Shown here one piece after another: positions 6,001 to 9,000 of a stretch of DNA of 33,189 nt. Numbering within the stretch: position 1 is the first letter of the stretch; each line of letters starts with the position of its first letter. The DNA comes from a virus (lineage: Duplodnaviria; Heunggongvirae; Uroviricota; Caudoviricetes): IMG/VR virus record IMGVR_UViG_2778260992_000002, positions 1 to 33,189 of that record, one strand, 5' to 3'. Made by a program: the position numbers.

Positions 6001-9000
6001 TGACATACTCGCTACATCTTTCTCCTTCATATACTCCAGCATGACGGCGTTGCGCTCCTCTTCAAACTGACGGCGGCCAACCTGAAGCATTTCGTACATC
6101 CAGTTAAAGGCGTTTATGTATGCAACTTTTATTCTCATGGCCTCTTTCTTTGTGTAAGACATAACCAGAAGCATCAGTCCATCCTTCCGAAGCCTGTAGA
6201 ATTTTTGTGGCTTACCATTCTGCAATTCATTGTTTTTAAAGCAAACCTCAAAATTGAGTTTTGTATCAAACTCTTCAGGGCAGGCCGCTATAGTTCGTTC
6301 AATATCACGGACAACGTTGTCGTGTCGCTTCGCAAACGCCTTTGCAACCATAAACGAATCAGTCACCGGCTCATGCTCCGCAACAAACACCAGGTCACGA
6401 AAATCAATACCATTAACTAAAGTTGGATAGTTCATTTGGATCACTCCTATTAGAAAGCTGAGCCAGTTCCGCAGAAAAGCCGCCCTTCGAGATGATCCGT
6501 TATCAACGGCAGTTCTCAGGCTCAGCTTTCTGATAGGCTCGAAGTTAAACGTGCGCGCGGAATGCGCATTCAGAAGACAGCCCCGCGTTTACGGAACCAT
6601 TAGAAAGAAAGTCACTTGTCGGTTTTCACCAGGGAATAAAAAAATCCAGGTGTATTGAAAACGCCGAGATCAGAAGGGACTCATCGTGTCCTCACCACCA
6701 GCGGATCTGCCCAACAAAATATCCAGACGCCAGAATCAGAAAGACCAGCCAAATAAGCAAAAACTTCCAGGTGGATAATTTTTCAGCCATAACTCGAATC
6801 TCCCGAATCAGTTTGCTAAAATCGAACACAGGTTCTCTCCTTGCTCCCTTCAAGGTGTGGAAACAGAAAACCCCGGCTGCTGGAACAGACCGGGGTTTTT
6901 GCTTTATGGCTAGAGTTTGAAGTGAACCGGTATTAACCCGGATTTGGTTTCTTTGACGTGATCGTGCTGTTGCCGCTTTGAACCCCAGTCACATCGTGGC
7001 TGTGACCGCTGGCGCTGACACCTTTTATCATCGCGTCGTTTTGCACAGTAAGCGGGCCAATCAGCGAAGCGGTTGTATCCTTCATCTGGGCTTTGTCCTG
7101 GACGATCGGTCCGTTGAGGTGAATTTTCCCGTTCAGGAAAATATCTTCGGCCTCGAGGTAAACAGCTTTCGACTTTTGCCTGATTTCTTCCGGTGCCACC
7201 GTTACCGAGCTACTGCTGTCCTCTGTTTTGAGGATCGCGCCATCCGGACCGTACAAAACGATTTTTTGCGGATCTTCGTCGGACCAGTCCTTGTTTGCCA
7301 GTGGCACGAAAAACAGTGGAGTGAGCGACATCGAGTAAGAGAGCGTCGCCATACCGGTTCCCAATCCGGACACACCGCGCAGGGATACATCAGCGGCAAT
7401 TGTTACTCCTCGATCGCCCGGCTGTATCGGGTAACGAATATACGGGAATGTGGCGACAGGGATTGTTATCTGCGGAAAGTTGATCCCCTCTGGCAACATA
7501 TCAAACTGAACGGTCACTATCTGCCCACTGACATCGACAACATGGCAGGGCAATTCGCGTCCTTTAAGCTCGGCTTGCTGGTTGCCAGAACTGGTCATCA
7601 TCTCCGACAGCGTTCGGAGAAACGGTAATTTTTGAGCGTTTGACATTACACCCTCGCCCAGTTCTCAGCATATGCCTCAAATACCGTCACCCAGGCATCG
7701 CCATCAGCTGTCAGATACGAACCAATGTGTCTGACCGATTTCACAAGAAATTTCCCGGTGAACGTGGTCGAAATTTTTGCGATAACGCTGGGTGCCGTTG
7801 TATTAGCCATCACAATCGACGCTGCGCCTGAATATAGCCCCTCCGGGAGTTCGATCACATCGCCGCATCGTATATCTCCCCGCAACGGGCATTTAAAACT
7901 GACGGTAAACGGCGCTATCCATGTCGGCTGCCCGACCAGTTCATGGGCATGAATTGTTTTTGGCTCCCCCCACTTTGCTGACGCGTTATCGTAAATTCGT
8001 ATTCTGTCGGAAAGAATACTGATGGCAATCCCGCTGTATTTCTCATCGCGCATCATTGCAATTGAAGCACTACGGAGGACCATAGCCAGCGAACCAATAT
8101 CTTCGTAGGTTCCATTCCACGGTTCCGGCAAAACGAGGCTGTCGCTGACAGTACAATCGATCAACTTATTCGGAAATGCCTTTTGCAACGCACGGAAGAT
8201 TACATCACCAACCTTTTCCCCTTTAAGCCCCTCCCCCTCGATAGAGAACGGTTTACCATCATCTGTTTTGCGTACGGTTGGATTTATTACCAGGTTTAAG
8301 GTCTGGTTCGTGCCGATCCAGTTGGCATAGGCCAGATAAATTTCGCCATAAATAACCTCACCCTGTTGCTGTGGATTTGCCAAAGGCAATCCCTCAACAA
8401 AGCCCGCTTTCATACGGACCAGACACCCCTGCAAACTCACGCTTTGCTTCAGCATGTCGATAGGCAAACCGTATATTGTGAGCATCGTTCCTGAATTCAC
8501 TACATCAAGACCCGCTACCTCCACGTCAAATTCAACATGTAGCCCACACCCGGGGGTTTTACTGGTATCAAAAGGCCCGATAGGTTTACCGTTGCAATCC
8601 ACTGGCGGCTTGCCTGTTTTAGGATTAATAATTTCCAGTCGGTAATAACGCATTACGAAACCTCAAACTGATTCGTACTTTCGCGAAAAACAAGTTTCCC
8701 CGGTGAACAAGGCAGCGCCAGATTGATGTCGTAATTGTCAGGTGACGCGATCAACGGCATGTACACAATCACGTCGCCAGAACTGTCTTTCAGTTCCAGG
8801 TAGTAACGATTTGCATACAGATTAAACGGAACGCGGGCGAATGTTTCATATTCTCCAATTCTGGCCGTGAACTGAAACGGACCTCGCCCGTCCGGTTTGA
8901 AAGGAATTAACGTTGTCATAAGCCAATACCAAACTCCTGCACGACCTGGTTCTTAATACCTGACCACGATAGCGGCCCGTCTGACTGCATCCCTTTATCA

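Follow-up and report, generated by a model that had tools for sequence, protein, structure and literature searches.

A conserved leader RNA with two pseudoknots precedes rha and five other gene families in Enterobacterales phages

We analysed a 33,189-nucleotide stretch of DNA from a virus of the class Caudoviricetes (IMG/VR record IMGVR_UViG_2778260992_000002, positions 1 to 33,189; hereafter the window) around its rha gene, which lies on the minus strand at 5881-6435, starts with an ATG at 6435-6433 and encodes a protein with Phage_pRha and ORF11CD3 domains as identified by domain search. Ahead of this gene the original prediction had placed an 18-bp inverted repeat with one mismatch and a 54-bp spacer, its proximal arm reaching into the Shine-Dalgarno (SD) sequence of rha, and had read it either as an RNA hairpin gating translation or as part of an operator set for a repressor. 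The repeat is real, with arms at 6446-6464 and 6519-6537 that are 95% complementary; the single mismatch and the 54-nt spacer were recovered as described, while the repeat search gave a length of 19 nt in place of 18 bp. The longest inverted repeat in 60 dinucleotide shuffles of 6200-6800 had a mean length of 10.3 nt and a maximum of 12, and a 19-nt repeat is far above chance expectation. The overlap with the SD also holds, since on the minus strand the ATG occupies 6435-6433 and the SD AGGAG 6448-6444, so that the proximal arm takes in its AGG. We found that the repeat is the outer stem of a conserved structured leader of approximately 140 nt on the rha mRNA, extending on the minus strand from 6574 to 6433.

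The whole element comprises a short hairpin (H1), a linker, a long hairpin, the SD and the ATG (6433-6574; all parts are on the minus strand) and is matched by the covariance model R2 with 122.7 bits (E 6.5e-32), the hairpin-only model R1 giving 97.6 bits over 6433-6541. H1 (6552-6568) is a 5-bp GC hairpin, UGCGC/GCGCA, with the 7-nt loop AUUCCGC (6563-6557). The 5′ arm of the long hairpin (6517-6537, the distal arm of the repeat) carries helix P1 at 6533-6537, the mismatched C6532 and helices P2-P3 at 6517-6531, and pairs with the 3′ arm (6446-6466, the proximal arm), in which P3-P2 at 6452-6466 are followed by the opposing mismatch A6451 and by P1 at 6446-6450; both arms were located by repeat search and pair check. 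P4 joins AGAACUGCCG (6507-6516) to CGGCUUUUCU (6473-6482) around a 2x2 internal mismatch, and P5 is an apical mini-hairpin, UGAU AACGG AUCA (6493-6505). Two further pairings tie the element together. In the first (PK1), UUCCGC in the H1 loop (6557-6562) forms six Watson-Crick pairs (-8.1 kcal/mol) with GCGGAA (6467-6472), a 6-nt 3′ bulge between P4 and P3. In the second (PK2), the last seven nucleotides of the linker, CUUCGAG (6538-6544), which abut P1, form seven Watson-Crick pairs (-8.2 kcal/mol) with CUCGAAG (6485-6491) on the 3′ side of the apical loop, after which G6484 and G6483 are unpaired. The pairs of all these helices were verified. By pair check A6448, G6447 and G6446 of the SD (6444-6448) fall within P1. 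Upstream, at 6575-6602, lies the decayed counterpart of an intrinsic terminator that relatives carry before H1, consisting of GGUUCCGUAAACGCGGGGCU and a U-poor tail, recognised from alignments and as a hairpin in the fold; terminators in this position are annotated in phi80 and HK639 and were also detected by scanning in relatives. Directly after rha a terminator-like hairpin with a U-run was found by terminator scan (5856-5875).

Two smaller features of the original prediction fared less well. The 12-bp palindrome GAATGCGCATTC at 6560-6571 exists, but what is conserved at this place is the overlapping hairpin H1. The third half-site, ATTAGAAAG, is present and exact at 6599-6607 on the plus strand but lies outside the conserved element, and as an operator component it is both at chance level and lineage-specific: with up to one mismatch the motif occurs nine times in the whole window against 9.1 expected, and in alignments this copy is common only to the near-identical relative L005 and absent in SP-016 and pPE4.

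The leader is 70-83% identical to sequence upstream of rha in 145 GenBank phage records, including phi80, HK639, HK620, CUS-3, epsilon34, Sf101, Klebsiella and Enterobacter phages and many Stx phages. In 80 IMG/VR loci picked by Rha protein similarity alone we identified 39 distinct leaders, which fall into several sequence types with one architecture. MAFFT and RNAalifold applied to the unaligned leaders recovered mere fragments of structure, and hand-drawn structures and covariance models were used for this reason. In an alignment of 13 alignable copies with the structure drawn by hand (A3), 90.5% of cells were paired against 39-52% in slid controls. R1, which describes the long hairpin, was built from A3; R2 adds H1 and the linker without PK1, and a third model contains PK2. 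R1 detects the element in every Rha locus, together with further copies elsewhere in the same phages. Pairing stayed high as copies were added, with 89.6% of cells (slid, 32-48%) and changes on both sides at 23 of 33 pairs in 43 distinct copies (A5), and 90.8% (slid, 29-46%) and changes on both sides at 32 of 37 pairs in 83 distinct copies (A8). By helix, H1 is 100% paired on A8, compensatory changes occur at 14 of the 15 P2-P3 pairs and 8 of 10 P4 pairs covary; P1 pairs covary on both A5 and A8, and P5 is the weakest helix (62% paired on A8, 85% on A12). The C.A mismatch adjoining P1 (6532 opposite 6451) is kept in 35 of 43 distinct copies. The unpaired positions conserved at ≥97% across the family are limited to a GGG run (G6485, G6484 and G6483 in the window) and one A. 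Scores rise throughout once H1 and the linker are included in the model, that of the window from 97.6 to 122.7 bits and that of type C from about 50 to about 70 bits.

Both pseudoknots are retained by sequence types that differ in the sequence that forms them. A8 was made by R2, a model containing H1 but not PK1, and on this alignment PK1 is paired in 93.6% of cells against 7-59% when slid, with changes on both sides at five of six pairs; its central pair is GC in 31 copies, AU in 25, UA in 14 and CG in three. H1 loop and 3′ bulge read UCUCAC/GUGAGA, UCACAC/GUGUGA, UCGCAC/GUGCGA, UUCACC/GGUGAA, UAGCAC/GUGCUA and CCGCAA/UUGCGG in six of the variants besides that of the window, and more exist. 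PK2, in which the terminal 6-7 nt of the linker, immediately 5′ of P1, meet the 3′ side of the apical loop ahead of a conserved GG and P4, occurs as CUUCGAG/CUCGAAG in the window and elsewhere as CACAGAA/UUCUGUG, CGAGAG/CUCUCG, CCAAGAA/UUCUUGG, CCCGAG/CUCGGG, CACCGAA/UUCGGUG and others. In an alignment-free comparison 47 of 49 distinct cognate combinations shared a perfect complement of ≥6 nt, the longest complement averaging 6.55 nt against 3.82 nt in 1069 non-cognate combinations, and on A12, an alignment fitted to PK2, pairing reaches 94.5% with changes on both sides at all six pairs. One locus (L138:2513-2654, plus strand) combines H1 and linker of one type with the long hairpin of another; as both of its pseudoknots are mismatched it looks recombinant and may be a natural 'broken' variant.

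The joints between these helices are short: PK2 runs directly into P1, and P3 into P4 on the 5′ strand, and two nucleotides separate PK2 from P4 on the 3′ strand. P1-P3 amount to approximately 20 bp and PK2 (7), GG and P4 (10) to approximately 19-20 bp. Short joints and stacks of similar length fit two helical stacks lying side by side and joined at both ends. In such an arrangement all helices would coexist, the P1-P3 stack beside that of PK2, GG and P4, with PK1 (bulge and H1 loop) capping one end of the double stack and the SD and start codon placed at the other.

Several observations bear on which strand carries the function. Read as mRNA, G.U pairs outnumber A.C pairs by 36 to 4 on A5 and by 76 to 34 on A8, and G.U occurs at 25 pair positions against nine for A.C. 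Of the 34 A.C cells on A8, 15 stand at two PK1 columns, which we ascribe to a shifted register where the bulge has 7 nt, and ten more at positions that are mostly unpaired anyway. R1 scores the window at 97.6 bits in sense and 29.2 bits in antisense orientation. The distance from element to ATG is fixed across six different downstream genes, and the upstream terminator has the same orientation. Minimum free energy (MFE) folding does not favour the sense strand, so the strand call rests on the G.U counts, the anchoring to SD and ATG and the lack of an antisense promoter; the mRNA (minus) strand is likely, though not proven, to be the functional one.

On this strand the GG core of the SD lies in the 3′ strand of P1, where AGG or AAGG of the SD is found in all types. 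The mean probability of being unpaired for the xGG core is 0.065 in native leaders compared with 0.375 when the 5′ part is shuffled. Folding of the leader, the check that had been proposed with the original prediction, left the core predicted paired in 67 of 83 distinct copies (probability of being unpaired <0.1), with a value of 0.005 in the window. A cruder SD window of -14 to -6 gave no discrimination, and the GG-core measure was used instead. The SD is predicted to be base-paired within a conserved helix of its own mRNA, as in SD-sequestering cis-regulatory leaders.

Transcription signals of its own were sought for the leader. A scan of the window, phi80 and one type-C locus found no sigma-70-like promoter between the upstream terminator and the gene, and no promoter-like site on either strand. 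A two-transcript arrangement with an internal promoter, as in T4, was rejected, as no conserved -10/-35 could be seen by eye and none was found by scan. No U-tract follows the long hairpin, whose 3′ arm continues with AGGAGUGAUCCAAAUG. An intrinsic terminator or attenuator was likewise rejected: there is no U-run, and the scan flags only H1 in the window, the tail of which is not U-rich in relatives.

The element is found ahead of a diverse set of genes. A pattern scan of IMG/VR returned at least 120 stretches, and R1 confirmed 79 hits in 80 loci scanned. Among 127 element hits listed there are six downstream gene families, namely Rha (at least 54 hits), KilA-N (+P63C) (at least 46), P22_AR_N antirepressor (at least 12), HNH_3 (at least nine), AntA (at least three) and phi80 gp66-like (at least one). 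The usual site in relatives is past the lysis genes and an intrinsic terminator, ahead of the terminase genes. Phi80 has two copies of the leader, before rha and before gp66, and an Stx2a phage carries one before rha and one before an ant gene lying between R and Rz, the 'd_ant' of PMC4426718. Copies in such two-copy phages or prophages, before different genes, were seen at L004:797-917 (minus strand) and L091:3856-3996 (minus strand) and as two hits each in L232, L234 and L057/L135. Within each copy the pseudoknot sequences match one another. The distance from the SD to the conserved ATG is 8-12 nt. The open reading frame (ORF) called mechanically in the window (5881-6444) begins instead with GTG at 6444, and deposited starts of rha/kilA-like genes run upstream into the leader in CUS-3, HK639, phi80 and FSL SP-016, the ORFs concerned being L001 2975-3586, L003 1674-2234, L004 1858-2412 and L086 693-1364.

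All confirmed copies are from Enterobacterales. A pattern scan of genome contigs with one genome per species gave mostly chance matches, which were filtered by the covariance model, and only Enterobacterales passed (Pantoea, Erwinia, Raoultella, Rosenbergiella and Arsenophonus). One subtype is present in 226 of 5426 complete E. coli genomes (>4%), and the subtype of the window in five of the 5426, matched at 100% in strain STEC005; no RNA feature was among the annotated features listed under these E. coli matches. E. coli DH5alpha (NZ_CM135829.1, 4526887-4526983) has a leader copy 83% identical to that of the window, presumably from its phi80 lacZ-deltaM15 remnant, and DH5alpha RNA-seq might for this reason show how the leader is transcribed or processed.

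The window itself matches Escherichia phage Rac-SA53 with 97% identity across 88% of 25 kb. Where Rac-SA53 passes directly from rac58 to rac59, the window has an additional 853 nt (5827-6679, minus strand) with ATGAG at both ends, the second copy of which provides the start codon of the next ORF. This insert contains the decayed terminator, H1, the long hairpin, rha and the terminator after it. As it holds leader and rha together, the leader appears to travel with the gene, and from the comparison of sequences we consider leader and rha to be a mobile 853-nt cassette in the tail-gene region of a Rac-SA53-like prophage. Of the features of a moron the cassette has the insertion (relative to Rac-SA53) and the terminator after rha, while the scan detected no promoter of its own, so that its transcription has to come from read-through of the tail-gene operon.

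We consider that the leader probably acts in cis as a translational gate on read-through late transcripts, hiding the SD of rha. Apparently lacking a promoter of its own, it would be made by read-through of a late or tail operon, and since its place in most phages is just past the lysis genes and an intrinsic terminator, the polymerase that transcribes it would be an antiterminated one. The fold would form once the 3′ arm has been transcribed and would bar the ribosome from the start site of a potentially harmful antirepressor-type regulator on abundant late transcripts. For translation to proceed, some factor shared by many hosts and phages would have to open or cut the fold, and this factor is unlikely to be the downstream protein since the leader serves six unrelated downstream genes; cleavage of the 20-bp stem by RNase III, a host RNA-binding protein, an RNA or a ligand are candidate triggers. 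The small number of invariant unpaired nucleotides argues against a classical small-molecule aptamer or a ribozyme core and favours a fold that is recognised by its shape or is just stable.

A number of points weigh against this interpretation. Of the two parts of the hairpin claim in the original prediction, the hairpin is borne out by compensatory changes, the excess of G.U over A.C and the paired SD core, while gating of translation is what we infer from the structure. P1 has just 5 bp and covers only part of the SD. A plain hairpin would suffice to hide the SD, and the elaborate fold suggests an additional or different function. MFE folding of the full 142 nt makes the sense strand the more stable in just 26 of 81 copies, and on the plus strand a U.G pair would stand in place of the conserved C.A mismatch. 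The alignments of the nested helices and of PK2 were fitted to those helices by covariance model, which is why the slid controls and the alignment-independent tests matter, and the cell counts overstate the number of independent events because many copies share descent. That all helices coexist and do not alternate is a geometric argument.

Two other explanations were considered. In the first the leader is a sensor, riboswitch-like or protein-binding, in which a metabolite, second messenger, RNA or protein sets the opening of P1, so that antirepressor-type regulators are made only in a particular physiological state. An architecture beyond the needs of hiding an SD, a single leader for unrelated genes, which implies a common external signal, and the conservation of GGG and of the C.A mismatch next to P1 are in its favour. 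Known small-molecule aptamers however have many conserved unpaired nucleotides where this element has few, no alternative and mutually exclusive helix was found, and the sequence suggests no ligand or partner, so that we regard a sensor of this kind as unlikely. A bolder form, in which the element constitutes a new class of sensor RNA, riboswitch-like or a receptor for a protein or an RNA, and its double pseudoknot senses a host or phage signal to release translation of Rha, KilA-N and Ant from late transcripts, is put forward only tentatively, as a doubtful possibility.

The second explanation is that the leader serves RNA processing or stability, RNase III or self-cleavage freeing the cassette mRNA from the late transcript, or the element protecting it, with hiding of the SD secondary. 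P1-P3 form a near-continuous duplex of about 20 bp with one to three mismatches, some of them conserved, and duplexes of this type resemble phage RNase III sites. The element also stands at the 5′ boundary of a transferable single-gene cassette within polycistronic late operons. For self-cleavage there is a precedent in the hammerhead ribozymes reported to flank single genes in prophage transcripts (PMC3088659), and the fold is compact and double-pseudoknotted. No known ribozyme family in Rfam matches, however, and an invariant unpaired set consisting of GGG and one A is unlike known catalytic cores; the SD lies inside P1 whichever of the six gene families follows, which points to translation, and we hold a processing element to be improbable. 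Self-cleaving ribozymes (hammerhead, pistol, twister, HDV-like) were rejected for want of an Rfam match and of a matching core. A hammerhead-like core was considered for the motif YUGAGRA, which resembles CUGANGA, but no GAAA follows the would-be stem II.

It is very unlikely that the structure belongs to a small RNA of the plus strand crossing the rha ribosome-binding site in the manner of sar on P22 ant. Any hairpin is a hairpin on the other strand too, the conserved C.A mismatch turns into U.G there, the antisense fold of the full-length element is on average 1.4 kcal/mol more stable, and antirepressor genes are classic targets of the antisense RNAs sar and c4 (PMC12197685). The distribution of G.U and A.C over pair positions nevertheless favours the mRNA strand, a promoter for such an RNA would have to sit in a downstream coding region that differs among six families, with none found by scan, and there is no terminator in the antisense direction. 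The Rfam model of sar (RF00262) has no match on the element, its sole weak match (16 bits) being to a terminator at 6867-6899. A sar-type antisense RNA was rejected on these grounds. A DNA-level element, whether operator half-sites for a repressor or Rha or a 'boundary sequence' promoting recombination of modules, draws on the good conservation of the arms within types, the position of the leader at a module junction and the four AT[TC]AGAAAG copies within 300 nt, but is extremely improbable, and with it the operator of the original prediction, given that the arms change between types yet stay complementary via G.U intermediates, that the covariation of loop with bulge and of linker with apical loop is not predicted by protein half-sites or recombination targets, that the extra half-sites are at chance level and not conserved, and that autoregulation by Rha cannot explain a family whose downstream protein varies. 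The four AT[TC]AGAAAG copies span 6449-6743, though the count over the whole window is that expected by chance; the one at 6735-6750 is complementary to the distal arm at 13 of 16 nt, probably by coincidence as it lies inside a small ORF that Rac-SA53 has without the rha leader.

A translational gate of the proposed kind has relatives among well-studied leaders. Those of the alpha operon (S4), rpsO (S15) and T4 gene 32 are pseudoknot operators that include the ribosome-binding region and are bound by the product of their own operon. Like them the rha leader combines long-range pairings and the initiation region in one compact fold that would control 30S access. It differs in that its downstream protein varies among six families, so that any partner must be external, and there is no sequence or Rfam relationship; to our knowledge the pairing of H1 loop with bulge and of linker with apical loop has no counterpart in the S4, S15 and gene 32 leaders. 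In the T4 lysozyme gene e, I-TevI and other homing-endonuclease genes an SD hairpin silences read-through transcripts, and active mRNA is made from a late promoter inside the hairpin. The rha leader would similarly silence a gene within a longer transcript by an SD hairpin, and one of its families is an HNH endonuclease, but an internal promoter is neither conserved nor detected, and in complexity its fold goes far beyond those of T4. The lambda N leader contains an RNase III site at which cleavage relieves translational repression. Both leaders place a long imperfect duplex beside the SD in the mRNA of a lambdoid regulator; no sequence similarity to that of N was found for the rha leader, which lies in the late region and has pseudoknots that the N leader lacks.

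Control of antirepressor genes by RNA has been described for sar (P22), c4 (P1/P7) and IsrK-anrP (Gifsy-1) (PMC12197685) and for 24B_1 and d_ant in Phi24B (PMC4426718). The targets are of the antirepressor type and are controlled post-transcriptionally at or near the ribosome-binding site, as proposed here, but these regulators are small RNAs acting in trans or antisense whereas the rha leader is a structure inside the mRNA. The target of 24B_1 was placed inside d_ant, and the leader was not described (PMC4426718). We found that d_ant, the ant gene downstream of R in Stx phages, carries a copy of it. For rha itself, PMC4936722 states that IHF 'regulates the rha gene' and that in hosts defective for IHF the growth of phage is blocked by Rha, and cites as a long-standing observation that Rha is harmful only in IHF-deficient hosts. 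By eye, only partial and non-conserved matches to the IHF consensus WATCAANNNNTTR were seen in the leaders.

Searches of Rfam 15 returned, for the window at gathering threshold, only sRNA-Xcc1, which lies elsewhere in the window; for the region 6380-6940, searched up to E 10, nothing above noise (≤20 bits); and for the loci of five relatives at E up to 0.01, no match. The models for sar and other curated families do not match the element. Keyword and literal-sequence literature searches found no published description of the leader. We regard the element as a new structured-RNA family with a familiar regulatory logic and an unfamiliar fold and trigger. Its architecture sets it apart from all the leaders compared, and so does the range of unrelated genes that it serves.

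Genes for Rha, KilA-N and Ant-type proteins, which are poorly understood, rank with the commonest regulator-like genes in temperate phages. An elaborate leader shared by six gene families points to a common post-transcriptional control that is apparently undescribed. The element is present in textbook phages such as phi80, HK620, P22-like and Stx phages. Its defined helices can be mutated, making the regulation of rha, including the Rha/IHF observation, directly testable. The result would warrant an RNA family entry of its own, and it puts right start codons that have been mis-called for rha in deposited genomes. Were the leader a sensor, lysis-lysogeny or inter-prophage control would have an input at the RNA level that had gone unrecognised, and the old Rha/IHF phenotype possibly its missing link.

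The neighbourhood of the cassette contains additional features. The match to sRNA-Xcc1 (RF02221; 69.7 bits against a gathering score of 53) lies at 4841-4925 on the plus strand, within 2 kb of the rha leader and unrelated to it, and 26 nt upstream of an ORF with an AntA domain (4951-5508, plus strand). Here too a structured RNA, of an unrelated kind, fronts an antirepressor-type gene, and sRNA-Xcc1 may for that reason be a cis leader at this site and not a free small RNA. The adjoining ORF at 4147-4686 (plus strand, 179 amino acids) has a signal-peptide or lipoprotein-like N-terminus and no Pfam match; as it runs counter to the tail genes and borders the sRNA-Xcc1/AntA unit, it looks like another inserted accessory gene. 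On the other side of the cassette a small hydrophobic ORF (6692-6853, minus strand; MAEKLSTWKFLLIWLVFLILASGYFVGQIRWW from an internal ATG) is the homologue of rac58 of Rac-SA53, and between it and the baseplate gene lies a GC-rich hairpin (6862-6900) with U-runs on both sides.

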